Of a stretch of 63,590 nt of DNA, positions 1,101 to 24,377 are shown piece after piece; the first letter of the stretch is position 1; every line of letters starts with the position of its first letter. The position numbers and the translations under genes were made by a program. The notes under the pieces are model-generated. The model saw only the letters and a list, made by a program, of their open reading frames with translations, had not been told where the DNA came from and made no database searches. The DNA comes from Phycisphaerae bacterium (lineage in GTDB: Bacteria; Planctomycetota; Phycisphaerae; SM23-33): NCBI GenBank assembly GCA_003551645.1, contig PUND01000065.1, forward strand, positions 1 through 63,590, written 5' to 3'.

Positions 1101-1103
1101 GAG

Positions 1104-2324
1104 CTATTCCTCCCGGCCGGCCGTCCGGGCCGGCGCCGGGGCCGCGTCGTCGGATACGACGGTCACGGACGCCCCGTCTTCGAGCAGATGATGCCCGAGC
1201 GTTACCACCATTCCGTCAATCTCCGGCTCAATTATCTGAACCCACCCGTCTTCGCTTGCGCCGGTCACCACCGGCACGAACTCGACCGTATCGGCCTGTC
1301 GGTCTATCAGGAAAACACCGGTCTCGTCGTTGCGCCTGCTGACGGCAGAGGCCGGAACCGCAGTGGCGTCCTCGTGGGCCTCCAACTCGATGCTGACCCG
1401 CACGAACATGCCCGGCGCCAGCAGCAAATCTGGATTCGGAACCTCCAGCTCCACCCTCGCCTGTCGGGATTCCTCTTTCAGAACCGGCGCCTTCCGCGCC
1501 ACCTGGCCGCTGAACGTCCGGCCCGGCCAGGCGTCGCTGCGTATGTTGGCCTCCTGCCCGACGGTTATGCCCGGGTAGTCCCGCTCGATGACGTGTATGA
1601 CCGCCGTCAGCGGGTCGGCCTGGACTATCGAGACGATGGGGTCGTTCGCACGCAGCATGCTGCCGGCATCGACGAACCGCTCAGCCACCACTCGCTGCGA
1701 GTCGGCGTCACCTTCGTTCGCCCACGTGGCGTGAATCCGGGTGTACCTCTGCCGAACACGAGCCGCCTCAAGGGCCGCCTCCCGCTGCTTTATCTGCGCC
1801 TTGACCACCTCGTGACCGGCGTCGGCGGCGGCGTATTTGCCCTGCGCCTGGTCCAGGTCCGCCTCGGAAACCACCCTCTCCTCGCGAAGCTCCTGCACAC
1901 GCTCGTACTCCCTGCGCGCCAGCTCCAGGTTGCTGCGCGAGTCGGCGAGGTTGGCCTGGCTGACCTCCAGCTCCGCCTCGGCCTGTGCGACCGCCTGGTC
2001 GTATTCGGCGCTGTCCAGGACCGCCACCAAGTCTTCGCTGTTGACGAAATCGCCTATGTTGACCTTAAGCTCTTCCAGCCGTCCGCTGACGTTCGGCGCC
2101 ACGACTACGCGGCTTTTCGGGCGCAGCGTGCCGGTGAACCCGGCCACGTCGCGAATCGTCCGGGTTTCCACGGGATGGGCCTCCACGGCCACGGCGCGGC
2201 CGTTCCCGCGGCCGCGGCCGGAACCGGAGCCGGCCTCCGTCTGATCAGCGAGCCGCCGCTGAACCAGCAAACCCAGCAGCGCCAGGGCGCCGACCAGGAC
2301 AATAGCGACGAATAGTTTCTTCAT
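1104..2324 (-). CDS. RND efflux periplasmic adaptor (membrane fusion protein)
   Basis: N-terminal membrane anchor, lipoyl-like halves flanking a coiled coil, and the motifs APNVSGRL, LLLAPGMFVRV and AVPASAV. Start taken at MKKLFV (2324). Confidence 0.93.
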   Translation of the reverse strand: MKKLFVAIVLVGALALLGLLVQRRLADQTEAGSGSGRGRGNGRAVAVEAHPVETRTIRDVAGFTGTLRPKSRVVVAPNVSGRLEELKVNIGDFVNSEDLVAVLDSAEYDQAVAQAEAELEVSQANLADSRSNLELARREYERVQELREERVVSEADLDQAQGKYAAADAGHEVVKAQIKQREAALEAARVRQRYTRIHATWANEGDADSQRVVAERFVDAGSMLRANDPIVSIVQADPLTAVIHVIERDYPGITVGQEANIRSDAWPGRTFSGQVARKAPVLKEESRQARVELEVPNPDLLLAPGMFVRVSIELEAHEDATAVPASAVSRRNDETGVFLIDRQADTVEFVPVVTGASEDGWVQIIEPEIDGMVVTLGHHLLEDGASVTVVSDDAAPAPARTAGREE

Positions 2325-2399
2325 GGGGTTACCTTGGTTGTTCGGCGCCGCGGCCGACGGCAAATCGCCGGCGGCCCGCCCGGCGCCATGCAGAAGGAA

Positions 2400-2854: not shown

Positions 2855-3172
2855 ATGTCAACAGACCCGTATATTTTGGCGGCCCCGCCCTTGGCGTGGT
2901 CCATCGGCTGGCCGGAGATCGTCCTGGTACTGCTGGTGATACTGCTGCTGTTCGGCGGCAGGAAGCTGCCGGAGCTTGCCCGTTCACTCGGAAGGGGGTT
3001 ACGCGAGTTCAAGGAAGAGATGGGCGGAGTCAAGAGGGACCTCGAAGCCGACGACAGCGAGAAGCCGGACGAATCGGACGCGAAGTCCGACCAGCCGGAG
3101 CACCCGGCCGACGAGCGGGGCGACAGCCGGGACCGGGCCGACGACGACCGTCGCGACAACCACAACCCTTAA
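2855..3172 (+). CDS. tatA: Twin-arginine translocase TatA/TatE subunit
   Basis: GWPEIVLVLLVILLLFGGRKLPELARSLGRGLREFK is the canonical TatA TM plus amphipathic helix, followed by an acidic tail. Confidence 0.95.
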   Translation: MSTDPYILAAPPLAWSIGWPEIVLVLLVILLLFGGRKLPELARSLGRGLREFKEEMGGVKRDLEADDSEKPDESDAKSDQPEHPADERGDSRDRADDDRRDNHNP

Positions 3173-3192: not shown

Positions 3193-3963
3193 TCATGCGC
3201 TTCCCCCGGCCGGCGTTTCATCCACGAAGACCCGCACCAGCAGCACGCCAAGCTCGTACAGCAGCCACATCGGCAGCGCCAGCGCCACCTGGTCCAGCGG
3301 CGAAGGCGACGTCGCCACCGCCCCCAGCAGGAACATGCAGACTATCACGTGCCGGCGGTATTTCGACAACTGCCCGCGGGTAACCACGCCCATCCTCGCC
3401 AGCAACAGCACCACTATCGGCGTCTGAAAAGCCAGGCCGAACACCAGCATCAGCCCGAGCATCATCGAGACGTGATTGTCGAAGGTGATATCCGCACGAA
3501 GGTTCAGCCAGCCGCTGAAGCCGATGAAGAACCTCAGCACCGGAACCGCCACGCCCAGCAGAAAGAACGCCGCCCCGGCCAGAAACAGCCCGGCCGAGAC
3601 CGCCACCGCCGGCAACACCATCCGCCTCTCGCGACGATGCAGCCCGGCCGCCATGAACATCCAGAGCTGGTAAAACACCCACGGGGACGACAGCACCAGT
3701 CCGGCCACAAGTGCGACTTTCAAGTATATGAGAAACCCCTCCGCGGCGTGCAGGACGATAAGCTCCGGCTCCCGGCCCGTCTCGGCCATCGCGCGGATGT
3801 AGGGGTGTTTCAGCGCATCGACCAAGTGGTTCCCGGCCGCCATGGCTATCGCGACCCCCACGGCCAGTCCCAAAAGCGCGCGGATAATCCGCCGACGAAG
3901 CTCCTCCAGATGCTCGCCGACGGTCATTCTGGCTTCATGCGCGGTTGACGGTTCATCGTCCAT
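3193..3963 (-). CDS. tatC: Twin-arginine translocase TatC
   Basis: MTVGEHLEELRRRII, YQLWMFMAAGL, FGLAFQTP, ATSPSPLDQ, LYELG and six hydrophobic segments. Confidence 0.95.
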   Translation of the reverse strand: MDDEPSTAHEARMTVGEHLEELRRRIIRALLGLAVGVAIAMAAGNHLVDALKHPYIRAMAETGREPELIVLHAAEGFLIYLKVALVAGLVLSSPWVFYQLWMFMAAGLHRRERRMVLPAVAVSAGLFLAGAAFFLLGVAVPVLRFFIGFSGWLNLRADITFDNHVSMMLGLMLVFGLAFQTPIVVLLLARMGVVTRGQLSKYRRHVIVCMFLLGAVATSPSPLDQVALALPMWLLYELGVLLVRVFVDETPAGGSA

Positions 3964-4126
3964 ATCGAAGCGACCTCGGACGCCGGCCACGCGGCGGCGG
4001 GGCATTGTAGCAGCCGGAGGAGGTCATTTGCGAAGGGTCTCGGCCGTCACTGAGTCCGCCAGGCCGAAGCGCGGTTCCGGCACCGCCGCCGCGGGCCTCG
4101 CGGGGCCAAGCACCATGGCCGCCCGG

Positions 4127-5693: not shown

Positions 5694-8012
5694 TTATTCA
5701 ACTTCCACGGCGTCGGCGGGGCATACATCGCGGCAGGCGCCGCAGCGGATGCATTCTTCCGTGTCGATTTCGTGTTTCTCGTGCGGCCGGGCGACAATCG
5801 CGTCGGCCGGGCAGTCCTGCGCGCATCGTGTGCAGCCGATACAGTTGTCGTTTATGCCGTATGTTATAAGGGCGGTGCACTGCTTCGCCGGGCATCGGCC
5901 CCGGATGTGCGCCTCGTACTCATCTCGAAAATGCTCCAGCGTGGATAGCACCGGGTTGGGGGCGGTCTTGCCAAGTCCGCAGAGACTGTTGTCCCGTATT
6001 GAATGCCCCAGCCGTTCCAGCTCCCGCAGGTCGCCGTCGGCGCCCTCGCCGCCGCAGAGCCGCTCCAACATGCGCAGCATCAGGCGGGTCCCGACGCGAC
6101 AGAAGGTGCATTTGCCGCACGACTGGTCCTGGGTGAACTCCAGGAAGTACCGCGCTATTTCCACCATGCAGTCGTCCTCGTCGAGCACGACCAGCCCGCC
6201 CGAACCCATCATCGCGCCGACGTGGACCAGTGCCTCATAGTCCACCGGCGTATCGGCCAGCGATTCCGGAACGCAGCCGCCGGAAGGCCCGCCGACCTGC
6301 ACGGCCTTGAAGCGCTTACCTTCGCCTATGCCGCCGCCGACCTCGTGAACCACCCTGCGCAGCGTGATACCCATCGGCACTTCGATAAGCGCGTTGCGGT
6401 TCACCTTTCCGGCCAGAGCGAACACCTTGGTGCCCTTGCTGTGCTCGGTGCCAAGTTTGGCGAATTCGTCGGCCCCGTTGCGGAGGATCCACGGCACAAG
6501 CGCGAAGGTCTCCACGTTGTTGACCAGCGTCGGCCTGCCCCACAGCCCGCTCCGCGACGGATACGGCGGCCGAAGCCGGGGGTTGCCGCGACGGCCCATG
6601 ATCGACTCCAGCAGGGCGGTCTCCTCTCCGCAGACGAATGCGCCGGCGCCCTCCATGACCCGCATCTTCAGATCGCCCAGCAGCCCCTCCTGCTCGCAGT
6701 GGGATATCGCTTCGCGCACGCGCGGTATCGCCAGCGGATACTCCTGGCGGATGTACAGAATCGCCTCGCCCGCGCCGATGGTTTGAGCGGCGGCGGCTAT
6801 GCCCTCGATGACGCTGTAGGGATAGCTCTCAAGGATCATCCGGTCCATGAACGCCCCGGGGTCGCCCTCGTCGCCGTTGCACACGACGTATTTGACGTCG
6901 GAGTCCGCCTCGGCGACCTCCCGCCATTTCTCGGCGGTCGGGAACCCGGCGCCGCCCCGGCCGCGAAGCCCGCTGCGTTCGATTTCGCCCAGCACCTGCT
7001 CGGCCGACATATCCTCGCGGCACTTACGAAGCGCCTCGAAGCCGCCCGTTTCCAGGTACTCCCGCAGGTCCAGCGGGTCGCTGCGTCCGGCTCGTTCGGT
7101 GACCAGCAGCACCTGCGGGTCCCAGAAGCTCGAAGCCCGCTGCGTGCTCATATCCAGCCCGTATCGCGTCACCGGCTCCCAGGCGTCGTCGGTCAGCAGA
7201 TGCTCAAGCGCCGTGGAGGCCGTGCGCCGCGCCTTCGCCAGCACGCCGCCGGGATGCAGGTGTCTGCCGAGAATCGCCCTCACATCGTCCGGGCGGACCT
7301 GTGCGTAAAGGTGCGAGCCGTCGTCCGGCGTAACTATCTCCACCAGCGGCGTCTCGTGGCACATGTTCACGCAGCTTACCGGCTTGACCTTCGCGTCGAT
7401 GCCAAGGTCCGCCAGCGCCTTGTCGATGGCCTGCTTGACGTCCCGTGTGCCGCGGGCGACGCAGCAGGAGTCCAGCGTGATTCGGATTTCCGCCTCCCGA
7501 GGCGTGCCCGGCCGGCGCCGGCGCTGCTTGGCGCGGCGTTTCTGAAGCTCAAGGAAGTCATCCAGCGAGCGGGTGATACTCTCGGTGGTAAGGTGTCCGA
7601 AGGTCACGTCGTCTATCTGCATCACCGGCGCCAGCGAGCAGCAGCCCAGGCAGGCGACTCGCTCGACGGTGAAGACCCCTTCGCTGTCGGTATCCTCGTC
7701 GCCCTCGATGCCGAGGTGTTTGCAAAGCGCGTCGGTTACCAGCGGAGCGCCTTTGACGTGGCAGGCGGTGCCGTGGCAGACGCGGACGGTATGCCGCCCG
7801 GCGGGACGGAGCCGAAACTGCGTGTAGAATGTGCTTACGCTTTCGACCGCGGCGGGCGTGATGTCGGCAATCTCGCAGAGCCGGCGCAGCGCCTGCTCGG
7901 GCAGATACCTGTACCTGGCCTGGATCGCCTGAAGCAGCGGTATCAGAGCGTCCTCGCTACGCCCGAGCCGCTCGACCACTTCGTCAACATGTGTCAGGTC
8001 AGGTTCCGCCAC
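5694..8012 (-). CDS. Fused NuoE + thioredoxin-like 2Fe-2S + NuoF + 2x[4Fe-4S] flavoprotein (HydBC/BfuBC-type NADH module)
   Basis: VCHGTACH..CLGCCSLAP (NuoE), SCC..CVNMC (second 2Fe-2S), SGLRGRGGAGFPT, CNGDEGDPGAFMDR, FVCGEET, SCGKCTFCRVG..LCGLG, HIRGRCPAKQC and two C-terminal CxxCxxCxxxCP motifs. GTG start at 8012 follows a purine-rich RBS. Confidence 0.92.
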   Translation of the reverse strand: MAEPDLTHVDEVVERLGRSEDALIPLLQAIQARYRYLPEQALRRLCEIADITPAAVESVSTFYTQFRLRPAGRHTVRVCHGTACHVKGAPLVTDALCKHLGIEGDEDTDSEGVFTVERVACLGCCSLAPVMQIDDVTFGHLTTESITRSLDDFLELQKRRAKQRRRRPGTPREAEIRITLDSCCVARGTRDVKQAIDKALADLGIDAKVKPVSCVNMCHETPLVEIVTPDDGSHLYAQVRPDDVRAILGRHLHPGGVLAKARRTASTALEHLLTDDAWEPVTRYGLDMSTQRASSFWDPQVLLVTERAGRSDPLDLREYLETGGFEALRKCREDMSAEQVLGEIERSGLRGRGGAGFPTAEKWREVAEADSDVKYVVCNGDEGDPGAFMDRMILESYPYSVIEGIAAAAQTIGAGEAILYIRQEYPLAIPRVREAISHCEQEGLLGDLKMRVMEGAGAFVCGEETALLESIMGRRGNPRLRPPYPSRSGLWGRPTLVNNVETFALVPWILRNGADEFAKLGTEHSKGTKVFALAGKVNRNALIEVPMGITLRRVVHEVGGGIGEGKRFKAVQVGGPSGGCVPESLADTPVDYEALVHVGAMMGSGGLVVLDEDDCMVEIARYFLEFTQDQSCGKCTFCRVGTRLMLRMLERLCGGEGADGDLRELERLGHSIRDNSLCGLGKTAPNPVLSTLEHFRDEYEAHIRGRCPAKQCTALITYGINDNCIGCTRCAQDCPADAIVARPHEKHEIDTEECIRCGACRDVCPADAVEVE

Positions 8013-8019
8013 AGGCGAT

Positions 8020-9777
8020 TCATTCCTTTCCCACGGCCCACAGGTGTCGTCGGCCGCGGATGTAGATGCGTCCGTCCACGTACGCCGGAGAGCAGTTGGA
8101 CCGCTCGGACAGATCGGCCGTGCCGAGTTCGTCATACTCATCCGCCGTCGCCGAGAACCGGTGCATCACGCCGTCGGATGTCAGCAGATGCACCTCATCA
8201 CCCACAAGCGTCGGCGAGGAGCGGACGGTCGAGTCGAAGTCGTGCTCGTAGATCATGTCGCCCGTCTCGGCGTCGAGGCAGGTCATCAATCCATAGGTCT
8301 GCACAAGCCAGATGCGATCGTCGGTCGCCAGAGGACTTACGATGTCCGGCAGGTCGTCGTAGGCGATCCATTCGATGTGGGTATCCGTAACGTCGCCTTC
8401 GCCGCCGGTGCGGATGGCCGATAGCTGCGAGTATGCCGTTACCGCGTACACCTTGCCGTCGGCATACGTCGGGGACGGTCCCACGTCGCCTGTCAGACAG
8501 TCGGCCCGCCATATCTCGCCGCCGTCGGCCGGGTCGTAGGCGATTACCCACGGGCTGGAGGTGGTTATCAACTGCTCACCGTCGGGCGTATCCGCCACCA
8601 GCGGCGTGGACCAGGAGTTCATCACCGGGCGTTCCTTAAGATACCGCACCGAGCCGGTCTCCAGGTCCAGCCCGTACAGCTCGCTGTACATGGCTTCCGG
8701 GTCCGTGCCCTGGTCGTACTGGATGATGACCTTGTCGCCGTGAATAATCGGCGAGGAGGCATGGCCGTAGATGTTGTCCGGTGGCCCCAGGTTGCGGGCC
8801 CATGCTCGCTCACCCTCCATATCGGTGCAGATCACGTCGCCGTTGGCGAAAACCGCTACCACATACCTGCCGTCGGTGGCAGGGCTTGGCGCGGCATATC
8901 CGGTGTCGTCCATCACGCTAGGCGCATCGGGCCGGGCGCCGGGGATATTGACCGCCCGGTGGCGCCAGAGCAGCTCGCCTGTGTCGGCGTTATAGCAGTA
9001 AAGCTCGCGATTTTCGGCGTCGGCACCGGTGATAAACACCCTGTGGCCGGCGACGACAGGCGAGTTGTGCCCCGGAAGCGGTATCTGCTCGGACTTCCAG
9101 AGGATGTTCCGCCCGCTCTCGCCGTCCCAGTCGTCGGGAAAGTCCCCGTCGGGCGCGACCCCAAGCCCGCCGGGTCCGCGGAAGCGTGGCCAGTCCGCCG
9201 AGACCTCAACCGCCTCGGGGGCGGGTTCATCCTCGGTATCGACACCCGCAACCGGCTCCGGTTCTTCCGGGGCGACGCGCCTGGCAAGCGGGTCGGGCGA
9301 GACCAGCGCCAGTGCTGTGATGGCGGCCGCCAGTGCTATAGAGGCCGCCCCGATCGACCACCGGGCGGTTTTCCTCCGGGCGATCTCGCGCCTGCTCAAA
9401 TCGCCCGAGCCGCCGGGGACCTTCACCGGACGACCCGAGGCCGCGACGTGTGCGGATATCAGCAGTGCGGCCACGCCGCCGGCAAGCAGCCAGCCGCCGC
9501 GACGCATGAACGCCTGCCGCCGAAAGAACTCCCGCCGCAGCCGAAGGTCCGCTTCGCGAATCCGCTCGCGCAGCTCCCCGTCGCCGGGGGTTCTGTCCAG
9601 CTCCGCCCGGAGTTGCTGGAACCGCGGCGATTCCCAGGGGTCGGCGCCCTCGGCGCCGGACCATTCCCAGACCAGCAGACCGGCCACCATCAAACAGAAC
9701 ATGGCGCAGACCAGGACCATCGACCGGGCGGCCCGGCGACGGGTGGCGAGGCGTTTGTCGTCGGTCGGGGACATCAA
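8020..9777 (-). CDS. Membrane-anchored PQQ/BamB-like beta-propeller protein with three N-terminal TM segments
   Basis: Three hydrophobic segments, then DWPRFRGPGGLG and repeated W..SP/SSP propeller blades. Confidence 0.85.
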   Translation of the reverse strand: MMSPTDDKRLATRRRAARSMVLVCAMFCLMVAGLLVWEWSGAEGADPWESPRFQQLRAELDRTPGDGELRERIREADLRLRREFFRRQAFMRRGGWLLAGGVAALLISAHVAASGRPVKVPGGSGDLSRREIARRKTARWSIGAASIALAAAITALALVSPDPLARRVAPEEPEPVAGVDTEDEPAPEAVEVSADWPRFRGPGGLGVAPDGDFPDDWDGESGRNILWKSEQIPLPGHNSPVVAGHRVFITGADAENRELYCYNADTGELLWRHRAVNIPGARPDAPSVMDDTGYAAPSPATDGRYVVAVFANGDVICTDMEGERAWARNLGPPDNIYGHASSPIIHGDKVIIQYDQGTDPEAMYSELYGLDLETGSVRYLKERPVMNSWSTPLVADTPDGEQLITTSSPWVIAYDPADGGEIWRADCLTGDVGPSPTYADGKVYAVTAYSQLSAIRTGGEGDVTDTHIEWIAYDDLPDIVSPLATDDRIWLVQTYGLMTCLDAETGDMIYEHDFDSTVRSSPTLVGDEVHLLTSDGVMHRFSATADEYDELGTADLSERSNCSPAYVDGRIYIRGRRHLWAVGKE

Positions 9778-11138
9778 CCGTCCTCTCCGGCCGATGCGGC
9801 GGCGTCATTGCGGCGTTTCCGCTCAATAGGACAGACTTCGAAGCATCTCCCGCACGACAGGCACGTGCCTCGGTCGGGCACGTAGTCCGGCCTGCGCCTC
9901 CGGACCGACCATCGCACAAGGCGCATCCCGGCGACAAGGCCGACGAACCCGCCGACGATCATCGCTCCGTGTCTGACTCGCGACCGGACCCGGCCGGCTA
10001 TGGCGTGTATCTCATCCGCACCGAGCGGTTGTCTGTCATAGGCGGCCGCCAGGTCGTGGTCGGTTTCCTCGCCGGCGTCGGCGCGGCGCAGGTGTTCGGC
10101 CAGGCGGACGTGATGGTCCGTCCGGCTGACTGCCGGACCCGCCAGCCAGCCGGCGCACAGACCGGCCGCAATCATCACCGGCCAGAGCACCAGACACACC
10201 GAGAGTCCGAGCTTGCCGAAATGCCGGCCGGGGTCCGGCGCCGACGGCGCCTCGATCGCGTTGTACGGGCAGGAGTTCTCGCATAGGCGGCACTGCACAC
10301 ATTCGTCGGGTGTTATTGTTACGTGCCACTTGCTCAGCCGGCTCAACGGCCTTAGCAGCACGCTGTACGGGCAGATGTAGCGGCAATACGGCCTGGCGAC
10401 GAAAACGCCCACCAGCAGCATCACCCCGCCCAGAATCAGCAGGTCCACACGCCCGGCGACGGAAAAGCTCACACGGCCGGCTTCGCCCATCGCCACCTGT
10501 TCTATCCATTTGCCCACCGGAACCAGACGGAAGATACTCACGAACGGGTCGAACCGGCAGATGAGGAACACCGTTCCGCTGAAGGCCAGCAGCACCGCCG
10601 CGGCCAGATAAGCCACCGCGAACAAGCTCAGCCCCGCCTCAATCGGACGGGGGATTTTCAGCGCCTTCAGCGCCACCACGTCCTGTATCGCCCCCAGCGG
10701 ACAGACCCCGCCGCAGAATGTCCGCCCGAACAGCAGCGTCCCGAAAAGCGGCAACAGGAGGAACGCGATTATCGGAAAGCTGACCGCGTAGCCGTCGCCG
10801 CCGATGCTCAATGCCGCGTTCTGGACCGCGCCTATCGAGCAGACGCAGCCCAGCCGGTAGAAACCGAAATAAAACAACGAAAGCAGCATCACCACCGCTA
10901 TGCCCCGTCGGGAGCGCCTCTTGAACGCAAACCACGAGGCCGCCACGATGGCGCCGGCGAGCACTGCCGCATCCACGTATTCAATGTGCCGCCAGATGCC
11001 CTGGCGCGGTTCGGGAGTAGTGGTCTCCGGCAGCGGCTCGTCCAGTTCCGGCGTGGGGAAGCGCAGATCCGCCGTCGCTGCCCCCGACAGCAGCATCAGC
11101 AGTATCAGGATAATTCCGGCGTGGCGCGTCGAGGTCAT
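9774..11138 (-). CDS. Polytopic membrane 4Fe-4S protein (NapH/MauN/NosR-C-like)
   Basis: GCVCSIG, RTFCGGVCPLG, RPYCRYICPY, CVQCRLCENSCP, CLSCGRCFEVCP and multiple TM helices. Confidence 0.88.
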   Translation of the reverse strand: MTSTRHAGIILILLMLLSGAATADLRFPTPELDEPLPETTTPEPRQGIWRHIEYVDAAVLAGAIVAASWFAFKRRSRRGIAVVMLLSLFYFGFYRLGCVCSIGAVQNAALSIGGDGYAVSFPIIAFLLLPLFGTLLFGRTFCGGVCPLGAIQDVVALKALKIPRPIEAGLSLFAVAYLAAAVLLAFSGTVFLICRFDPFVSIFRLVPVGKWIEQVAMGEAGRVSFSVAGRVDLLILGGVMLLVGVFVARPYCRYICPYSVLLRPLSRLSKWHVTITPDECVQCRLCENSCPYNAIEAPSAPDPGRHFGKLGLSVCLVLWPVMIAAGLCAGWLAGPAVSRTDHHVRLAEHLRRADAGEETDHDLAAAYDRQPLGADEIHAIAGRVRSRVRHGAMIVGGFVGLVAGMRLVRWSVRRRRPDYVPDRGTCLSCGRCFEVCPIERKRRNDAAASAGEDG

Positions 11139-11140
11139 AA

Positions 11141-11710
11141 TCAGCGTGTCTTAAGCAGGTAGGGCTGGTCGGCGGGAACTCGGCGGAAGGCGTCGGCGGG
11201 ACAGGCAGGTGCTATGGTGCATTTGTTGCAGTTCACACAGCGGTCGTGACGTACCTGCAGAAACAGCGAGCCGTTACCAAACCGCTCGCAGCCGTCAACA
11301 CACTTGCCGCAGCCGATGCAAAGCTCCTCGTCTATGGAATATTCGTAGTAGGGGTCCTTCTTGAACGTCCTGACAATCGCGCCGGTCGGGCAAAGCTGGT
11401 TCTCGGCCGCTGTCGTCAGCTCGGTGGCCTTGGGGTCGAAGTAGCCGGTGCACAGCTCGCAGTAGCCGCATATCTCGTATGCGTGCACGGCCTTGACGGC
11501 CGAGGGGTCCAGCACGCAACGGGTGGCGCAATTCCCACACTTGACGCACTTGTCCGGGTCCAGTTGCCAGACGGTGTCGCCCTTGCCGGCGACGGCCTCG
11601 GATATCAGCCCCGCCGTACCGCCGGCCAGCACGACAACGCCGCCCGCCTGCAGGCCCCGGCGCAGCAGTTCACGCCGGGTGAGCTTGGGTTTGTCGTCGC
11701 GGTCAGTCAC
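11141..11710 (-). CDS. Tat-signal polyferredoxin (NapG/MauM-like, 16 Cys, up to 4x[4Fe-4S])
   Basis: LTRRELL twin-arginine motif with hydrophobic core; CVKCGNC..C, CGYCELC, CP, CIGCGKCVDGC, CVNCNKC, CP. Confidence 0.85.
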   Translation of the reverse strand: MTDRDDKPKLTRRELLRRGLQAGGVVVLAGGTAGLISEAVAGKGDTVWQLDPDKCVKCGNCATRCVLDPSAVKAVHAYEICGYCELCTGYFDPKATELTTAAENQLCPTGAIVRTFKKDPYYEYSIDEELCIGCGKCVDGCERFGNGSLFLQVRHDRCVNCNKCTIAPACPADAFRRVPADQPYLLKTR

Positions 11711-11960
11711 GTTCGGCTCCGCGGGTGTTCTGGCGGTAAGACATCGCCTGCGGCAGTCGGCAGCCGGAGACCGCCGAGCAGTCGCGGCAGATGAATTCGT
11801 TGATGCATGTCTCGGCCTGCCGGTCGCCGCGCCGCAGGAGGTTCTTGCCGGTCATTGTCGCACCGGCGGCCACCAGCGCGCCCGCTGCCAGCCATCGCAG
11901 GCCGCCGGCCAATAGCTCCCGCCTGGTCAGGTTCTTCGCGTCCTCTTTACGTCCGTCCAT
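11703..11960 (-). CDS. Small Tat-motif protein with a four-Cys motif (hypothetical)
   Basis: 85 aa; LTRRELL, a hydrophobic helix and C-x5-C-x2-C-x5-C. It overlaps both neighbouring genes, consistent with translational coupling. Confidence 0.7.
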   Translation of the reverse strand: MDGRKEDAKNLTRRELLAGGLRWLAAGALVAAGATMTGKNLLRRGDRQAETCINEFICRDCSAVSGCRLPQAMSYRQNTRGAERD

Positions 11961-12964
11961 CAGTCGCTCCGTTGTTTCGGCTCGAAAATGCGCACCTCGG
12001 CTTTGATGGCATCCAGCACGTGGATTCGGTCGCGGCTGTCCACAGCCAGTTCCAGCCGCTCGGTGTCGGCGTCGAATTCCGTGGCCAACGCGACCACGGA
12101 CAGGAACCGCCCGTGCGGGTCATAGAGTTTAACGCGCGGCAGGCCCTTTTCGGCCGTAACTACCCGGCCGTCGGACAGGACCGCCACGTTGGTGGGGTTG
12201 CAGCAGCCGCAGAAGCCCTCGATATCCCGCATGGACGGCTCGCCCCAGCTCAGCTCCAGACCTCCGTCGGGCGTATAGGTCTCCACCCGCCATCGGCCGG
12301 GGTTGGTCACACGAATCAGCCCGTCCGCTCCGGCGGCGATATCCAGGCACAGCGCCCGGACCAGCAGGCCTGGTATATCCCACTGCTCATCCGCCTCGCC
12401 GAGCCGGCCGATCGGATTTCCGGACAGGTCCAGTCGATGCACTACCGCGTTGCCGGCGTCGGCCGCAAAGACATCTTCGCCCATCACCGCCAGGCCGGTC
12501 AGCATTGTCCGTTCGTCGAACGGCTCCCATTCATCGAGCATGTCGCCGTCCGGGCCGTACACCTCCACCCGGTCTATCATCCCGACGTACACCGTGCCTT
12601 CGTCCGCCACGGCCAGGCACGTCGCCTGTCCGCCGGTTTCAAACCGTCGGATGGTTTCACCGTCCGGATTGACGCTCCGCAGTTCGGCATCCCCGGCGAT
12701 ATACAGGACATCGTCCGGGCCGACAGCGATTGCCCGCGGGGTTTCCACACCGGCCGGAATCGCATCGACCTGCCGGTAACCCACGCGGTCGGCGCCGAGG
12801 TCTTTCAGCTCCGAGATGTCGTAGCGGAACTCCTGACCGACCCGGCCGCCCGGCCGACCGGTGCCTTCGCCGGTGAATATCACCCATAGCGTCACCCCCA
12901 GGGCCACGCCCACCACGGCCGCCGGCAGGGCAATCTTCACCAGTCTGTTTAGCGATTCGGACAT
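11960..12964 (-). CDS. Membrane-anchored NHL-repeat beta-propeller with an FCGCCNP motif
   Basis: N-terminal TM segment, NHL-like repeats (PRAIAVGPDDVLYIAG, GLAVMGEDVFAADAGN) and GFCGCCNPTNVAV. Confidence 0.8.
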   Translation of the reverse strand: MSESLNRLVKIALPAAVVGVALGVTLWVIFTGEGTGRPGGRVGQEFRYDISELKDLGADRVGYRQVDAIPAGVETPRAIAVGPDDVLYIAGDAELRSVNPDGETIRRFETGGQATCLAVADEGTVYVGMIDRVEVYGPDGDMLDEWEPFDERTMLTGLAVMGEDVFAADAGNAVVHRLDLSGNPIGRLGEADEQWDIPGLLVRALCLDIAAGADGLIRVTNPGRWRVETYTPDGGLELSWGEPSMRDIEGFCGCCNPTNVAVLSDGRVVTAEKGLPRVKLYDPHGRFLSVVALATEFDADTERLELAVDSRDRIHVLDAIKAEVRIFEPKQRSD

Positions 12965-13096: not shown

Positions 13097-14497
13097 TCAC
13101 GGCTGCGCCTCGGCCGACACATCCAGGCAACGCATCCGCCCGAGGTCTCTTACCAGCAGCTTCCCGCCGGCCAGCGCGGGCGGGCCCCACGCCTCCGGGC
13201 CGGGCAGCACCCGGGCCTGCGCGATCTGCCGATACCCCTTCGGCGTCGCCTCCACCATCGTAAGCGTTCCGTCATCGTCAATAAGGTATATAACGCCGTC
13301 GGCGAGCAGGTATCCGCCCAGTCCGAAGCGATGCTCCCTGCCGCTGGTCCAGATGATATTGCCGTCAAGGTCCAGACAGACCAGCCGGCCGTCGGCTCGG
13401 ACACCGTAAATGTGGTCCTCATAAAGGACAGGCGTCTGCTGTTCGGCGCCGAATTCACTCGCCGACAGACGCCATTTCTCGACTGGTTCAATCCCACCGT
13501 CGTTCTGTCGGAGCTGGAGCATCATGCTGCCGGCGTTGTACCCGCCGGTAAGCAGAATCCGCCCGTCGGGAACGATAACCGGGCTGGGCACGGTTGCGAT
13601 GCTGATGCGCCAGGCGTCCGTGTGCCAGAGTATCTCGCCGTCGTCGGCACATACCCCGACGACGCCCCCGCTGCCGCAGTACACGTACATCCGCCTGTCG
13701 GCGAAGTCCATCGGCATCACCGAGCTGTGGGTCATGTCCCAGCCGAACTCGTTCGGTGTCTCCCATACCTTCTCGCCGCTTTCGGCGTCGATCGCCGTCA
13801 GCAGCACATCATCGCCGGCGGGGGCAAGTATAACTCGACCATCATCGATGAGCGGGCACTGTCCGGCGTACCAGGGGGGGACCCTGGTGCCGTATTCGGA
13901 GACCATGTCGATGCCCCAGAGGTACTCGCCGGTCTCGGCCTCCAGGGCCATGACGTGGCACTTCGGCCCCAGCGTTACCAGCACACCGTCGGCCAGGGCG
14001 GGCACGGTCCTGCTCATGCCGTGATTGCGGCGGATGTCCACCGGCACCGACCGGCGGTAGATTTCCCTGCCGTCGTCGAGGTTGATGCAGCGAAGGGCAT
14101 TGGCGCGGTTCTCCACGTCGTAGTCCAGCACGTAGGCCCTGCCGTCTTTGACCGCGGCCGCGGCGTAACCCTCCCCCAGCGAAACCTCCCAGAGTACAGG
14201 CGGGCCGTCGTCGGGCCAGTCTCTAGCCAGTTCGGCGGCCGATCGCGCTATGCCGTCGCGCGCCGGTCCGCGGAACTGCGGCCAGGCGTCCGCCGTGGGT
14301 TCCCCGGGCGGTACGTCGAAGGTCTCCAGCGTACCGGGCAGGGCCGGCTCGGCCGGCGCATCCTGACGGGGGGCTTCGTCTATACCCGGCTCGCGCCGTA
14401 CCAGCTCCGGGGCGCCGTCGCCGGCGGCGAGCAGCCAGAAAGACAGCACCGCTATTAGCACGGCTGCTGCGAAGATTGGGAGTATCCGGGCGAGCAC
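13097..14497 (-). CDS. Membrane-anchored PQQ/BamB-like beta-propeller protein
   Basis: N-terminal TM segment, AWPQFRGPARDG and blades ending in W..P/SSP. Confidence 0.88.
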   Translation of the reverse strand: MLARILPIFAAAVLIAVLSFWLLAAGDGAPELVRREPGIDEAPRQDAPAEPALPGTLETFDVPPGEPTADAWPQFRGPARDGIARSAAELARDWPDDGPPVLWEVSLGEGYAAAAVKDGRAYVLDYDVENRANALRCINLDDGREIYRRSVPVDIRRNHGMSRTVPALADGVLVTLGPKCHVMALEAETGEYLWGIDMVSEYGTRVPPWYAGQCPLIDDGRVILAPAGDDVLLTAIDAESGEKVWETPNEFGWDMTHSSVMPMDFADRRMYVYCGSGGVVGVCADDGEILWHTDAWRISIATVPSPVIVPDGRILLTGGYNAGSMMLQLRQNDGGIEPVEKWRLSASEFGAEQQTPVLYEDHIYGVRADGRLVCLDLDGNIIWTSGREHRFGLGGYLLADGVIYLIDDDGTLTMVEATPKGYRQIAQARVLPGPEAWGPPALAGGKLLVRDLGRMRCLDVSAEAQP

Positions 14498-14650
14498 TGA
14501 TGTTCCGGTGCGGTCTGTCGGCTTGAACCTCGACAGGCGGCAGTGTACATTAATCTACCCACCATTTTTGTCTTTATGCTCCTGAAAACCAAGAGATTTT
14601 GCGGGCCGACCGGCCCTGAAACAGGTTCAACCCCGATAAGGGGGCCGATT

Positions 14651-15889
14651 ATGCCAAAGATTGCGGCTTTGCTGTGCGCGTTTCTGTGTGTCGGTGTTCT
14701 GATGCACTTGTATCCCCCCGCGGCAAGCGCCGAGGATAGCGCCGTGTCCGACTGGCCGCAGTTCCTCGGCCCGAACCGCGACGGCACCACCCCGGAAAGC
14801 GGCTGGCGAACCGACTGGGACGACCAACCGCCCGAAAAGCTCTGGGAAAGAGACGTCGGCACCGGCTACGGCAGCGTGGCCGTCCGCGACGGCCGGGTGT
14901 ACACCATGGGCAACGCGGACCGAACACAGGACGTGGTCTGGTGTCTTGACGCCTCCTCCGGCGAGGTTATCTGGAGGCACAGCTATCGGCAGCGGGGCGC
15001 CGGCGCCGGCTACCCAGGCCCGAGGGCGACGCCGACACTCGACGGCGACCACGTTTACTCCTTCAGCATTGAGGGCAAACTGCTGTGTCTGGACGATTCC
15101 CGCGACGGCGAGGTCGTCTGGAGCAGGGACGTGGTGGACGATTTTTCCGGAACAGCCGGGCAGTGGGGCTTCGCCTCGTCGCCGCTGGTGCTGGGTGAGA
15201 AGCTCATCGTGGACGCCGGGACGGTCCTCGCACTGGACAAGAACACGGGCGAGCTTATATGGCGGACCGGCGACTACCGGGCCGGCTACAGCTCCCCTGT
15301 GGCGTTCGAACGAGACGGCGAGACGCTGCTGGCGATATTCAACGCCTCCGGCCTGGTGATCCTCAACGCCGAGGACGGCGAGAAGATCGCCGAGCACCGC
15401 TGGCGGACCGCCCATGACGTCAACGCGGCCCTGCCCCTGATTGACGGGGACCACATCTTCATCACCTCCGGCTACCGAAGCGGCGGGGCGCTGCTGAAGC
15501 TGACCGATGAGGGGCTTGAGGAAATCTGGCAAAACCGTGCCCTGGGCAGCCAGTTCTCCAGCGTGATACTCAGGGACGGCTACCTCTACGGCTTCGACGG
15601 CAACGTCGGTGGCGCGCGGATGAAGTGCGTGGAGCTGGAGACCGGCCGGGAGGTCTGGCAGCACCGCGAGTCCGGCGCGATGATACTCGCCGGCGACAAG
15701 TTCCTCATACAGGGCCACGCGGGCCGACTGGCCGTGGCCAGGCCGACGCCCGAGGAGTACGAAGAACTGTCGTCGTTTACTCTGCCGCGCGACCGATGGT
15801 GGAATATCGCCGTACTCGCCGAAGGCCGCATATACGCGCGTAGCCACGGCGGAAAACTGGTCTGCCTGGACGTCAGCGAAGAACAGTAA
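14651..15889 (+). CDS. Secreted PQQ/BamB-like beta-propeller protein
   Basis: Sec signal (ASA-ED), DWPQFLGPNRDG, ATPTLDG and FASSPLV. ATG at 14651. Confidence 0.88.
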   Translation: MPKIAALLCAFLCVGVLMHLYPPAASAEDSAVSDWPQFLGPNRDGTTPESGWRTDWDDQPPEKLWERDVGTGYGSVAVRDGRVYTMGNADRTQDVVWCLDASSGEVIWRHSYRQRGAGAGYPGPRATPTLDGDHVYSFSIEGKLLCLDDSRDGEVVWSRDVVDDFSGTAGQWGFASSPLVLGEKLIVDAGTVLALDKNTGELIWRTGDYRAGYSSPVAFERDGETLLAIFNASGLVILNAEDGEKIAEHRWRTAHDVNAALPLIDGDHIFITSGYRSGGALLKLTDEGLEEIWQNRALGSQFSSVILRDGYLYGFDGNVGGARMKCVELETGREVWQHRESGAMILAGDKFLIQGHAGRLAVARPTPEEYEELSSFTLPRDRWWNIAVLAEGRIYARSHGGKLVCLDVSEEQ

Positions 15890-15923
15890 AACACCCCACA
15901 ACCCCAAACGCGAGGAACACAAA

Positions 15924-17306
15924 ATGAGAACTAACACCGTCGCCCTGTGTCTGGCTGCCCTGGTCGCCTCCTGCGCCGCGGCCAGCCCGCCTGTTGGCTG
16001 GCGGGGCGACGGAACCGGGCGCTACCCGGACTCCGAAGCGCCGAAGGAATGGTCCGCTGAGCGGAACGTATTGTGGTTTGCGGAAACCTCTGAATGGTCC
16101 AACACGATGCCGACCATCGTGGGCGACCGGATTTTCATAACCGCCGAGCCGGCGACCCTGATATGCCTAGACGCATCGGACGGCTCGGTCCTCTGGCAGG
16201 CCGAGAACGATTACGAAAGCATTCTCCGCGAGGAGGAACTGGCCCGCGCCGAAAAGGCCCGGGAGCTTAACCGTGAGCTTTCCAGTCTGCGAGGCGAACA
16301 CCGCCGCACCCGCCGGGAGGCCGAACGCGCCGAGGATGAGCCGGAAAAGGCCGCCGAACTCGCACAGCAGGTCGAGAAACTCCAGGAGCAGGTGGATGAG
16401 TTGCAGCAGCGCCTGGCGTCCTACAGGGAATACCTCAAGCCCGACACCCACGGCACCAACGGCTATTCCTCGGCGACCGTCGTCAGCGACGGCCGATACG
16501 TTCACGCGCTTTTCGGCATCGGTGTGGCCGTCTCTTACGACATGGAAGGTAACCGCCGCTGGGCAAGGCGCGTCGATAAGCCCCGCAGCGGCTGGGGCCA
16601 CAGTGCATCTCCGGTTTTGGCGGACGGCAAGCTGATAGTGCATGTTACCGACGTGGTTGCGCTGAATACCGACGACGGTGAAGAGATATGGCGCACGCCC
16701 GCCAAGGCCAGCTTCGGCACACCCGTGGTGGCCTCGGCCGACGGCGGCGACGTGATCATCACACCCCGCGGCGACTTCATCAGGGCCTCGGACGGCGAGA
16801 AACTCGGCTCGGTCGCCGCGGGCCTTGAGTACAACTCACCCGTAATCCAGGACGGAGTGGTGTATTTCGTCGCCAACCAAAGAGGCAGGGCAACAGCCGT
16901 CAAGCTTCCGGAAAAGCCGGAGCCATTCGACGCGGAACCCCTCTGGCAGGTGGATATCACACGCAATCGGTACTACGGGTCGCCGGTTTACCGCGACGGC
17001 AGGATTTACGCCGTCACACAGAGCCACCAGTTGACCGTCCTGGACGCCTCCAACGGCGAGGCCATATACGAGATGAGGATCCCCGATATGCCCGGCCTGG
17101 TCTATTCAAGCATCACCATGACACGCAACGCACTGCTGATAAGCACCGAGCGGGGCGCGACCGTTCTGCTCGCGCCCGGTGATGAATACGAGGAACTCGG
17201 CCGGGGCCGCCTGGATACCTTCCGCAGCACTCCGGTGTTCGACTCCGGAAGGATGTACATACGCACACGGTCGGGGCTGTACTGCATCGCACCCGAGGAC
17301 AATTGA
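15924..17306 (+). CDS. Secreted PQQ/BamB-like beta-propeller with a coiled-coil insertion
   Basis: Signal peptide, GWRGDGTGRY, a ~70 aa Glu/Arg-rich helical insert, HSASPVL and STPVF. Confidence 0.82.
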   Translation: MRTNTVALCLAALVASCAAASPPVGWRGDGTGRYPDSEAPKEWSAERNVLWFAETSEWSNTMPTIVGDRIFITAEPATLICLDASDGSVLWQAENDYESILREEELARAEKARELNRELSSLRGEHRRTRREAERAEDEPEKAAELAQQVEKLQEQVDELQQRLASYREYLKPDTHGTNGYSSATVVSDGRYVHALFGIGVAVSYDMEGNRRWARRVDKPRSGWGHSASPVLADGKLIVHVTDVVALNTDDGEEIWRTPAKASFGTPVVASADGGDVIITPRGDFIRASDGEKLGSVAAGLEYNSPVIQDGVVYFVANQRGRATAVKLPEKPEPFDAEPLWQVDITRNRYYGSPVYRDGRIYAVTQSHQLTVLDASNGEAIYEMRIPDMPGLVYSSITMTRNALLISTERGATVLLAPGDEYEELGRGRLDTFRSTPVFDSGRMYIRTRSGLYCIAPEDN

Positions 17307-18163
17307 CCATGGAATCACCCGCGGATGTGTTGTTTTGCCGCTGCGCATACGCCGGCCTCACAGACCCCGCCGAATGTGAACGTCTGCTCGCTGGGCTGCG
17401 GGCGGCGGGGCTTTCCTGCAGCCCTATACCTGACCTGTGCTCGCTGGTCGAAAGACGCGACCCGATACTGAGCGAGACCGCCGGGCGGCGGCGGCCGGTG
17501 ATCGTCGCCTGTCGGCCGAGGGCGGTGCGGGCACTGTTCGCGTACGCCGGGGCGGAGCTTCCCGAAGATGCGGCCGTGACAGACCTTCGCAACACGCCCG
17601 TTGAGGAGGCGCTTGCGGAAATAGTGCCGCCGGAAACACTCCCGGCCGCCCGCGCCGCGGCCGAGGCGGCCGGCGTCGCCGAGCCAAGGCAAGACCCCGA
17701 AGACGGCTGGCTGCCGTGGTTTCCGGTCATCGACTACACACGCTGCACCCACTGCGGTAAGTGCCGTAACTTCTGTCTGTTCGACGTTTACACCACCACC
17801 GACGACGGCCGGGTCGCCGTCTCGGCGCCGCGAAACTGCAAGACCTTCTGCCCGGCCTGTGCCCGCACGTGCCCGGCCGGCGCGATCATCTTCCCCAAAC
17901 ACCCCGATCCGCCCATCGACGGCGGCGAGCCGGACAAACCCTCCAAGGCCGAAGATGCGCCTACACTGGTGCAACAGGATGTGTTCGAGGCATTGAAGGC
18001 CCGCAACCGCCGCCGGCAAGACCCTTGCGAATGCGACTGCGAGAAGGGCGCGGCTGATCCGTCGGAGCAGTTGAAACAGGCCGGGCTTTCCCCCGACAAG
18101 ATAGCCGAGATTTCCCGACGTATTCATGAACATGCCCGGGACAATGAGACCCCCGACAAATAA
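17303..18163 (+). CDS. Ferredoxin-family protein: HdrA-N-like Cys domain plus 2x[4Fe-4S]
   Basis: FCRC..LC..ACRPR N-terminal domain, [24 protein letters not shown] and C-terminal CECDC. Confidence 0.8.
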
Positions 18164-19709
18164 CCGCCTCACACCTGCGGTCGTCCTGGTGGCCGACAGG
18201 ACCCTCAGCGCCCGCTACAACGTGCTGTTCGAGGGCATCCTCGCGACTATGCAGACAACTCAGGTCCCGTCGGTGGCGATGCGGCGGCTTCTGTCTCCCT
18301 CGGCGCCGACCGACCGCGACGGCCGGGCCGTAGTCGCTCCGCTGGGGCTGCGAAGGGTGGAAGCCGCGCTGCTGGACGACGGCCTGGACAACGCCGACGT
18401 TGTCGTCACCACACCGGAACGGCTCGAAGACCTGCTCGGCCCGTGGACCATGGTCGTCGCGGTCAGCTCCAGCGACTTCCTCGGCCGGGGCATGAGCAAC
18501 ACCACAACGAGCAATTTCTGGTCCGGCGAGCTTTATACGCGCCGCTGGACACGTCGGATGATGCAACGGATCCTCGATGCGAAACGTCGTTTCGGCTTCT
18601 CGGTCATCGCCGGCGGGGCGGGCGCCTGGCAGTTGGCCCAGAGGCCGCAAGAGGCAGGGCGACTGGGCATTGATACCGTCTTTCAGGGTTACTTCGAATC
18701 CGGCGGCCCGGACACTGTCCGCGATCTCCTGCGGGGCCGCGAAGCCCCGTTCCACATACACCAGCTGCGGACCCGCGCGGCCTGGGCACGGCCGATTCGC
18801 GCGGCGTCCTCGATGGGCGTGGTGGAGCTTTCCCGCGGCTGCGGCAACGGCTGCCAATACTGCACCATGGGCCGGCATGCGATGGAGCACCTGCCGCCGG
18901 AGACCATACTCAGCGACCTTCGGACCAACTGCGAGGCCGGACTACGAAGCGCCGTCAGCAGCAGTGAGGACTTCTTCCGCTACGGCGCCGACCGCGGCCG
19001 GGTCAACTTCGACGCCCTTACAGGCCTGCTCGAACAGGTCCGCCGGATCCCGGTGCGGTTCATGCAGATAGACCACGCCAACATCAGCTCGGTTCTGGAG
19101 TTCTCCGACTCGCAACTGCGGGAAATCCGCCGACTCCTGACGTGGTCGCCCTCGACTCGCTACCTGTGGGTGAACCTCGGCGCCGAGAGCGCGAACGGCG
19201 AGCTGGTCGCGGCCAACGGACCGGGCAAGCTAGGCGGCATCCCGCCGGCCGACTGGCCCGAAGCCGTCATCGAGGCCGCCGACAAGCTCGACCGCACCGG
19301 CTTTTTCCCCGTGTTCAGTCTGGTCCTTGGGCTTCCCGGCGAGACACCCGCCGACGTCCGTGCTACGCTGGACATGGTGCGGCGGCTCGCCAACGGCCGG
19401 GCTGTCATATTCCCGGTGTTCCACGAGCCGATCATGCCCGGCCAGAAGCGATTCGGCATGGCCGAGATGACATCCGAGCACCTGCAACTGTACCGTACTT
19501 GTTACGAGCTGAATTTCCGATGGGTACCGCGGCTGTTCCGCGACAACCAGAGAGTGGGCGGCGTCGGCGGCGTTCGTCGGACGCTGTTCCAGTTGCTGGG
19601 CAGGGCGGAAGTTGTGTCCTGGAGGCGGAACTTCGCTCGCCTTGGCCGGAAACTGCCCGAAAGCCCCACAACCCGCCATCGGCCGGCCGAGATCGCCGCC
19701 GGCGGTTAG
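18144..19709 (+). CDS. Radical SAM enzyme with B12-binding-like N-domain, resembling the GDGT ring synthase (GrsA/B) family
   Basis: CxxxCxxC ([11 protein letters not shown]), [11 protein letters not shown] and LGLPGET. N-terminal VLVADRT..Y and [19 protein letters not shown] match my recollection of the Grs-family pattern. Confidence 0.8.
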
Positions 19710-19716
19710 AATCGCC

Positions 19717-24030: not shown

Positions 24031-24377
24031 AACTGATATACTCAAACGTGAAGGGCTTTCAGCCGGCAGCGAAACGGCCGGCGGCTTTGAGACGCCTTAA
24101 TTCGCGACCCATTGACAGGGCCGAGCGGAAAAGCCGTTCAAGCAGCCACTGTCATACGCGGCTGTGCGTCGCGTGTGCGAACGTTTTGCGTTGCGATGGG
24201 CCGAGTACCGAGGCCGTCCGGAAATGCGTGGCAAGTGAGTTAATGACTTACGACAGAAGTACGGAACTGTTTGGGGCTGATGCTTCAACAGCGGCCGACC
24301 GGAGGTCCGAAGGACCGGCAGTCATCAGCCGGAGCCGTGAGGCCCCGGAGCACTAACGATTGCGGAAACAAGCCGAC

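Follow-up and report, generated by a model that had tools for sequence, protein, structure and literature searches.

A candidate electron conduit between a cytoplasmic NADH-type flavoprotein and periplasmic propellers, built on a NapH-like membrane protein and a Tat ferredoxin

In mau gene clusters, NapG-like and NapH-like proteins are encoded beside a propeller subunit and a small, cysteine-rich exported subunit, and NosZ, NirS and ExaA are propellers as well. A similar set of genes is found at the locus described here, which lies on a 63,590-nucleotide stretch of DNA from a Phycisphaerae bacterium (contig PUND01000065.1 of assembly GCA_003551645.1), analysed over its whole length and called the window throughout. 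Its central genes encode a ferredoxin with a twin-arginine translocation (Tat) signal and a NapH-like iron–sulfur (Fe–S) membrane protein, and these share an operon with genes for propellers and for a cytoplasmic flavoprotein. NapH-like proteins have been described as modular transmembrane conduits that are paired with NosZ, PceA, NirS or ExaA (PMC8238504). The best-known pair, NapGH of Escherichia coli and Wolinella succinogenes, combines a Tat ferredoxin of 16 cysteines with a polytopic protein that carries two CX3CP motifs and two cytoplasmic 4Fe–4S motifs, an architecture shared by the window pair. The CX3CP motifs of NapH are needed to hold NapG at the membrane (PMC5928378), and docking of NapF needs the first of them, which provides a precedent for a cytoplasmic Fe–S partner (Kern and Simon 2009, cited in PMC5928378). 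Whether CX3CP forms a disulfide or a 2Fe–2S cluster is stated to be unknown (PMC5928378). In the PFD protein of delta proteobacterium MLMS-1, a NapH-like and a NapG-like part are naturally fused, showing that both work as one unit (Tooke et al. 2017, PMC5449189). The role of CX3CP and the electron route across the membrane in proteins of the NapH, NosR and RdhC type are open questions in the field.

We put at roughly 0.55 the probability that the pair in the window is the transmembrane core of an envelope redox system, a wire from NAD(P)H and ferredoxin to the periplasm that could work without the quinone pool. Such a system probably carries electrons from cytoplasmic NADH to propellers outside the inner membrane. 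It is widespread, occurring in about six phyla, and is apparently undescribed.

A NapG-like ferredoxin and a NapH-like membrane protein

The two genes, separated by 2 bases, span 9774–11710, where an earlier note on this DNA, made from its letters alone, had placed a Tat ferredoxin with 16 cysteines next to a polytopic 4Fe–4S protein. Both open reading frames (ORFs) lie at exactly these coordinates, and Pfam matches and invariant cysteines bear out the two assignments. The ferredoxin starts with TRRELLRR, followed by a hydrophobic stretch and AVA-G, and has four Cys4 groups. In an alignment of 29 family members from about six phyla, all 16 cysteines are invariant, as is the first arginine of the RR motif; the second is found in at least 90% of the sequences, one of which has RK. 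The genome of the window, which is 93.9% complete and is the basis for all whole-genome absences given here, has a single match to tatC, at the end of the operon, and the tatA beside it is the only TatA detected. The conserved RR motif and the location of the sole tatC and tatA detected, at the operon end, make Tat export of the ferredoxin plausible, and since these two genes adjoin the operon, the Tat machinery may serve mainly the ferredoxin and a second Tat-signal protein of the same operon, the Cys4 peptide described below. Remote homology links the ferredoxin family to E. coli NapG (hhalign 91.2%, E = 1e-6), which also has 16 cysteines; no curated NapG/MauM model is among the 19 NCBIfam families that the ferredoxin matches at E ≤ 0.001.

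For the membrane protein, we aligned 28 sequences from the window and related loci. The invariant elements are a signal peptide followed by RFPxPEF, then GC98xC100, C142xxxC146P, IC194xxDPF, C252xxxC256P and the cysteine groups C280–C290 and C426–C436; they comprise two CX3CP and two CxxCxxCxxxCP motifs, with seven invariant cysteines outside the latter, ferredoxin-type motifs. A cysteine census of the window protein and 118 representatives of 400–500 amino acids (aa), one per cluster at 50% identity, gave a similar picture: each of 15 conserved cysteines is kept in 117–119 of the 119 sequences, well beyond what chance would give, and both CX3CP motifs are invariant (119/119), and the two remaining cysteines of the window protein are not conserved (1/119 each). 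The CX3CP motifs and the first Fe–S motif align with E. coli NapH (hhalign 95.9%, E = 6.3e-9, 142 columns).

The likeness to NapGH and MauMN proposed in the earlier note thus holds as homology but not as family membership. The membrane protein falls below the curated cut-offs of both TIGR02163 (NapH/MauN; 50.7 versus 213.05 bits) and the NapH equivalog NF007013 (39.4 versus 234 bits), reaches 34.4 bits with the NosR model NF046105 (cut-off 1000) and matches no FMN-binding (flavin mononucleotide-binding) Pfam domain, and nothing in the whole genome scores above the NapH family cut-off. Searches of the Protein Data Bank with its structural model (Foldseek, E ≤ 0.001) returned no fold match among solved structures, and sequence profiles compared with solved structures matched generic ferredoxin motifs only. 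Judged by these comparisons, the pair belongs to the NapGH/NosGH/NosR superfamily as a branch of its own, outside the named families.

Several features set this branch apart from its relatives. Compared with NapH, the window protein carries in addition a signal peptide and a further N-terminal helix, and three more invariant cysteines are predicted at its outer face, in GCxC and ICxxDPF motifs that E. coli NapH does not contain. A two-helix hairpin interrupts the ferredoxin domain of the window protein, and the two CxxCxxCxxxCP motifs lie about 135 residues apart, whereas those of E. coli NapH are contiguous. With NosR/NirI, NosGH and RdhC/PceC it shares the four-helix CX3CP membrane module and a modular pairing with periplasmic propeller proteins (PMC8238504; Buttet et al. 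2018, PMC5928378), and with NosR an N-terminal signal that is followed by an extracytoplasmic segment. It differs from these systems in that the periplasmic carrier is an Fe–S ferredoxin rather than a flavin, and the partner propellers have no known cofactor. PFD has its NapH part first and an internal twin-arginine before the last helix, whereas fusions of the window family have the Tat ferredoxin first; in the window, moreover, the two genes are separate, and both Fe–S motifs of the membrane protein are predicted on one side. A dual Sec–Tat topology of the PFD type was ruled out, as the last helix is not preceded by a conserved RR (consensus R-x-R-F).

An AlphaFold2 (AF2) model and a count of hydropathy and charge agree on a signal peptide and about seven hydrophobic helices. 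In the predicted topology, the signal peptide is cleaved, helix 1 runs from outside to inside, the loop KRRSRRG lies inside and the four-helix CX3CP module follows; both CX3CP motifs would then sit at inner helix ends and C98, C100 and C194 at outer ends. Because a two-helix hairpin lies between them, the two ferredoxin-type motifs should be on the same side of the membrane, and by the positive-inside rule that side should be the cytoplasm. NapH has been described with the same orientation (PMC5449189).

The outer loop between helices 4 and 5 of the window protein carries a 22-residue insertion, VPVGKWIEQVAMGEAGRVSFSV (residues ~205–226; 10461–10526, minus strand), which is missing from all 27 other aligned sequences. 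The genome also encodes a second, shorter NapH-type protein of 286 aa on contig C54 (L032:1441–2301, minus strand; Fer4_5 8.9e-17, TIGR02163 51.8 bits). This gene adjoins an AIR-synthase-related/CMD gene, and the 3.6 kb seen around it contain no propeller or NuoF.

Gene order and natural fusions across phyla

We identified 31 related loci, each encoding a relative at 36–45% identity, in metagenome-assembled genomes (MAGs) labelled Bacteroidota, Hydrogenedentota, Nitrospirales, Armatimonadota, Verrucomicrobiota and Spirochaetes. Gene order was scored by tblastn with the window proteins, counting only loci with enough contig on the side concerned. The conserved order is an exported propeller (Prop466), an NHL propeller, in some loci the Cys4 peptide, the ferredoxin, the NapH-like protein, a membrane-anchored propeller, a NuoE–NuoF fusion (NuoEF) and a GltD-like protein that resembles NfnA and StnA. 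The ferredoxin lies directly upstream of the NapH-like gene in all 28 scorable loci and the NHL propeller upstream in 26/26; Prop466 is present in 22 of 24 (missing from L023 and L026) and the anchored propeller lies directly downstream in 23 of 24 (missing from L014). NuoEF is found in 19/22 loci and the GltD-like gene in 17/20, both being missing from L014, L021 and L023. In L014 the propeller–NuoEF pair is on another contig of the same genome, and elsewhere in the Verrucomicrobiota genomes of L021 and L023 only ordinary split NuoE/NuoF-type modules were found.

Consistent with the earlier note, which had seen no recognisable terminal reductase beside the pair, the ORFs scanned over the 63.6 kb of the window include none. 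The homologues are not neighbours of known reductases either, and the reading in the earlier note survives this check: none was detected among the 31 loci by tblastn with the window proteins, which found propellers instead, and a Pfam scan of 40 flanking ORFs at 10 loci revealed no molybdo-, haem- or copper reductase. The window and the same 40 flanking ORFs are also free of napA, napB, napC and mau structural genes, a difference from both NapGH and MauMN; no relatives of mauA or mauB were recognised there.

The strongest evidence on how these proteins belong together comes from natural fusions. Ten of the 150 best representatives of the membrane family reach 900 aa or more, and in all ten a NapH-like protein is fused to an anchored propeller that shares 34–43% identity with that of the window. 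The 17 longer relatives of the ferredoxin include 12 ferredoxin-to-NapH-like fusions, with the junction just before or near RFPxPEF, and one NHL–ferredoxin fusion (P0283); the other four have no recognised second part. The junctions fit the predicted topology, with the ferredoxin and RFPxPEF outside and the NapH-like C terminus and the N terminus of the propeller anchor inside. Because NHL–ferredoxin, ferredoxin–NapH-like and NapH-like–propeller fusions all occur, the two propellers are physical partners of the pair, and the four proteins would form one assembly; this does not imply that the propellers accept electrons. Co-folding of residues 26–454 of the NapH-like protein with the mature ferredoxin (43–188), using alignments, gave scores of 0.09 and 0.01, where the mark is 0.32, and was not used for or against binding.

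The cytoplasmic head, the propellers and the direction of electron flow

The NuoE–NuoF fusion contains a NuoE-like 2Fe–2S domain, a NuoF-like FMN/NADH domain and a C-terminal 2×[4Fe–4S] part, as in the B/C part of Bfu-type enzymes. Its best solved relatives are 9bov_B (E = 5.7e-201), the NfnB chain 9n5u_B, 8oh5_B and HydB chains (E = 5.7e-201 to 4.1e-161), and it resembles NfnB, StnB and HydB of the NfnABC, StnABC and HydABC complexes (9bov, 9n5u, 8oh5). The second subunit has a 2Fe–2S domain, Fer4_20, a Rossmann fold of the FAD/NAD (flavin/nicotinamide adenine dinucleotide) type and a C-terminal Fe–S domain, and matches 9bov_A, 8oh5_C and 9n5u_A best over their first 290–355 residues, which corresponds to the N-terminal part of NfnA and StnA. 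At 556 aa, compared with 963–1178 aa in the solved chains, it is not a full-length A subunit with an acceptor module and lacks most of the catalytic or NADPH-binding part. Unlike in NfnABC, StnABC and HydABC, the head is thus encoded with a membrane conduit and not with a soluble acceptor module. As the genome search detected no NuoH, an assignment of NuoEF to complex I was ruled out. A flavinylation survey, in the portion drawn on here, ties NuoF-like proteins to MsrQ-like rather than NapH-like clusters (Meheust et al. 2021, PMC8238504).

From the order of the genes we infer the following route. The Bfu-type head, composed of NuoE–NuoF and the truncated NfnA/StnA-like subunit, would oxidise NADH, possibly together with reduced ferredoxin, and reduce the cytoplasmic clusters of the NapH-like protein, whose split 2×[4Fe–4S] domain and two CX3CP motifs are predicted on the inner side. 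The electrons would then move through the membrane cysteine sites of this protein, including the outer triad formed by GCxC and ICxxDPF, to the four-cluster Tat ferredoxin on the outer face. From there they would travel, probably by way of the small Tat Cys4 protein, to the NHL propeller with its vicinal cysteine pair and to the PQQ_2 propeller held by a three-helix anchor.

The earlier note had called the pair quinol-oxidising and had not connected it to the cytoplasmic NuoE–NuoF and GltD/NfnA-like genes of the same operon. On that account the pair would be a quinol dehydrogenase of the NapGH type that draws on menaquinol and feeds the propellers through the exported ferredoxin, with NuoEF separate or only regulatory. 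We know of no quinol-binding site defined for any NapH, which counts against it. Instead, at 19 of 22 loci the operon also encodes the conserved partner, a Bfu-type NADH flavoprotein head in the cytoplasm, and the absence of NuoH leaves nothing else in the genome to explain the NuoEF genes here. The missed NapH cut-offs and the three cysteines that are not in E. coli NapH argue in the same direction. A quinol donor would nonetheless fit the homology of the pair to NapH and NapG, the description of NapGH as a quinol dehydrogenase (PMC5449189, PMC5928378), the one gene of the MqnA/D type (futalosine pathway) in the genome, in which no MenA was found, and the two Verrucomicrobiota loci that keep the core without an adjacent head. 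On balance we consider quinol oxidation unlikely and the claim unsupported; the donor is probably NADH or ferredoxin rather than quinol.

On the periplasmic side, the propellers are not the only neighbours, as the earlier note had held: the 85-aa Cys4 peptide also has an export signal, with TRRELL as its twin-arginine motif and cysteines spaced C-x5-C-x2-C-x5-C. A peptide with this spacing is encoded in the interval from the NHL gene to the ferredoxin gene at 12 of 28 loci; a search by pattern did not find it at the other 16. Cys4 peptides of the Hydrogenedentota loci L009, L012, L013, L015 and L029 have SRHEF or SRYEF, that is, RH or RY at the expected RR. The NHL propeller (AF2 predicted local distance difference test (pLDDT) score 91.8) has, across 27 sequences, an invariant vicinal cysteine pair (GCCNP) and the motif T-x-EKG-xx-R-x-K. 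It gave no enzyme lead in a fold search, which returned TRIM-type NHL domains only, or in the ESM Atlas, which returned only NHL clusters named 'hypothetical'. In the PQQ_2 propellers, the conserved residues are mainly structural tryptophans and glycines, with no conserved cofactor ligands; the invariant residues of Prop466 are mostly of these two kinds, plus H159. Of the proposal that the propellers are the redox clients, the physical association is supported, by the fusions that tie two of them to the pair. The propellers may be clients or scaffolds: their invariants are mostly structural, and only the NHL propeller has a suggestive invariant pair of vicinal cysteines.

Those cysteines bear on another explanation, in which the CX3CP pairs and the outer triad act as a thiol–disulfide relay, or the system matures a cysteine-derived cofactor on the NHL cysteine pair or the Cys4 peptide. 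A parallel exists in MauMN, which accompany the propeller and the Cys-rich light chain of methylamine dehydrogenase. The NHL pair, the Cys4 peptide, the seven invariant non-ferredoxin cysteines of the membrane protein and the CX3CP role left open in the literature (PMC5928378) would all suit such chemistry. We nevertheless regard it as very improbable: four [4Fe–4S] clusters in a periplasmic protein indicate one-electron wiring, 16 of 28 loci lack the Cys4 peptide by pattern, and no thioredoxin-fold or DsbD-type protein was seen among the window ORFs scanned.

Electrons might also flow the other way, with the propellers oxidising a periplasmic substrate, the conduit carrying electrons inward and the head reducing NAD+ and ferredoxin. 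Bfu enzymes of the HydABC and Nfn families are reversible, and the propellers have PQQ_2 (PQQ, pyrroloquinoline quinone) domains. With the PQQ dehydrogenase model, however, the propellers score 26.6–38.8 bits against a cut-off of 480, they also match an 'empty quinoprotein' model, and their invariant residues are structural. The PqqC model had no match in the genome, but none in control genomes either. In 172 genomes, NapH-like proteins are found next to ExaA, a PQQ alcohol oxidase, and according to the authors the flow could be reversed (PMC8238504). Reduction of NAD+ or ferredoxin would require a very low-potential donor, and we think inward flow improbable.

Electron export from the head to the propellers, the reading we prefer, has its own difficulties. 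Domain content, conserved ligands, gene order and fusions are direct observations; the direction of flow, the docking of the head and the independence from quinones are deduced from gene order, and the core can occur without an adjacent head, because L014, L021 and L023 (3/22 loci) lack a neighbouring NuoEF. For the membrane protein, the AF2 model is of no more than moderate quality (pLDDT 76.4, predicted template modelling score 0.76) and is poor in the Fe–S segments. To our knowledge, no transmembrane electron route is known for any NapH-family protein, and an Fe–S site on the periplasmic side of a Sec-inserted protein would be hard to assemble. Given the MqnA/D gene, the host may have a menaquinone pool, and the PQQ_2 propellers may be scaffolds rather than acceptors. 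All of these points weigh against the export of electrons that we propose.

If the head truly feeds the conduit, electrons from NADH and ferredoxin would reach the periplasm without passing through quinones, and the system would link flavin-based bifurcation enzymes to the cell envelope. More tentatively, it may serve as a quinone-independent export path for low-potential electrons, in which the cysteine sites of the NapH-like protein on both faces wire the head to the ferredoxin, the Cys4 mini-protein and propeller enzymes. As such it could be a fermentative sink or an envelope-modifying reductase in anaerobes of many phyla, and may act on the product of a co-travelling terpenoid gene cassette and ABC/FtsX exporter (Table 1). 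The family is favourable for structure determination and reconstitution, because both its cytoplasmic donor and its periplasmic ferredoxin are defined and the outer face has additional invariant cysteines.

Distribution, locus layout and neighbouring genes

With one representative for each cluster at 50% identity, the membrane family amounts to 7696 sequences at E ≤ 1e-3, 2746 at E ≤ 1e-10 and 599 at E ≤ 1e-30. Relatives of the ferredoxin make up at least 4552 clusters at 90% identity (E ≤ 1e-10) among the 5000 candidates listed; among the matches listed, the nearest comes from a Phycisphaerae MAG (79%) and the relatives are named only '4Fe-4S binding protein', 'ferredoxin' or 'RnfB'. In the phylum of the window, 30 of the 201 genomes sampled, from 28 of the 171 genera, have a match at E ≤ 1e-50. 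A full-text literature search, whose scope excluded subscription journals and the supplements of PMC8238504 that list NapH-like gene clusters, returned no description of the gene cluster.

On the minus strand of the window, the operon runs 5′ to 3′ from a PQQ_2 propeller (Prop466) through the NHL propeller, Cys4 peptide, ferredoxin, NapH-like protein, anchored propeller, NuoE–NuoF and NfnA-like protein to tatC. Its coordinates and those of the surrounding genes are given in Table 1.

Table 1. Genes of the conduit operon and its surroundings in the window
Feature	Coordinates	Strand	Evidence and remarks
RND (resistance–nodulation–division) efflux pump (N-terminal part) and membrane-fusion protein	3-2363	(-)	Pump cut by window edge; downstream of Tat genes
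TatA	2855-3172	(+)	Convergent to tatC
TatC	3193-4005	(-)	7.6e-59; final operon gene
GltD/NfnA-like protein, truncated NfnA/StnA-like subunit, 556 aa	4127-5797	(-)	Pfam and NCBIfam; real start probably near 5692
NuoE-NuoF fusion (HydB/NfnB/StnB type), C-terminal 2×[4Fe-4S]	5694-8141	(-)	Pfam and NCBIfam; real start probably near 8012
PQQ_2/BamB-type propeller with three-helix N-terminal membrane anchor	8020-9777	(-)	Start overlaps NapH-like stop by 4 bases
NapH/NosR-type polytopic Fe-S membrane protein, 454 aa	9774-11138	(-)	Fer4_5 (PF12801) 1.3e-11 and Fer4 motifs
Tat ferredoxin, 189 aa, four [4Fe-4S] motifs	11141-11710	(-)	Pfam, e.g. Fer4_7 2.9e-11
Cys4 peptide, 85 aa, Tat signal	11703-11960	(-)	8-base overlap with ferredoxin start
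NHL propeller, six-bladed, membrane-anchored	11960-12964	(-)	Upstream of the pair
Prop466, exported PQQ_2-type propeller	13097-14497	(-)	PQQ_2 4.1e-32 (Pfam); first gene of operon
Exported PQQ_2 propeller	14543-15889	(+)	Divergent from operon; paralogues upstream in many related loci
Exported PQQ_2 propeller	15924-17306	(+)	Divergent from operon
Terpene cassette: ferredoxin, Grs-like radical SAM enzyme, DUF116-polyprenyl synthase, prenyltransferase barrel, SHC-like cyclase	17303-24030	(+)	Adjoins propeller genes
Fifth propeller, PQQ_2/ACSF4-type	24360-25574	(+)	After terpene cassette here; after GltD-like gene in other genomes
ABC ATPase and 1098-aa FtsX-type permease	24360-29571 (region)	(+)	After fifth propeller
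dnaA	39870-41264	(-)	Bac_DnaA 7.3e-65

Some of these neighbours recur elsewhere. In the Armatimonadia loci L027 and L028, a radical SAM gene, a cyclase gene and a Prop460-type propeller gene also adjoin the conduit operon. A homologue of the fifth propeller follows the GltD-like gene in L001, L003 and L020, with a GT4 glycosyltransferase next (3 of 10 loci) and then, in L001 and L020, an ABC ATPase.

The operon accommodates inserted genes and fusions. At L024, the ferredoxin and NapH-like genes are separated by an ORF6N-domain gene (9430–9972), and the NuoEF and GltD-like genes by a GDSL lipase gene (15784–16866). The GltD-like protein of L027 (16148–19003) is 951 aa long and has a URO-D-like C-terminal part.

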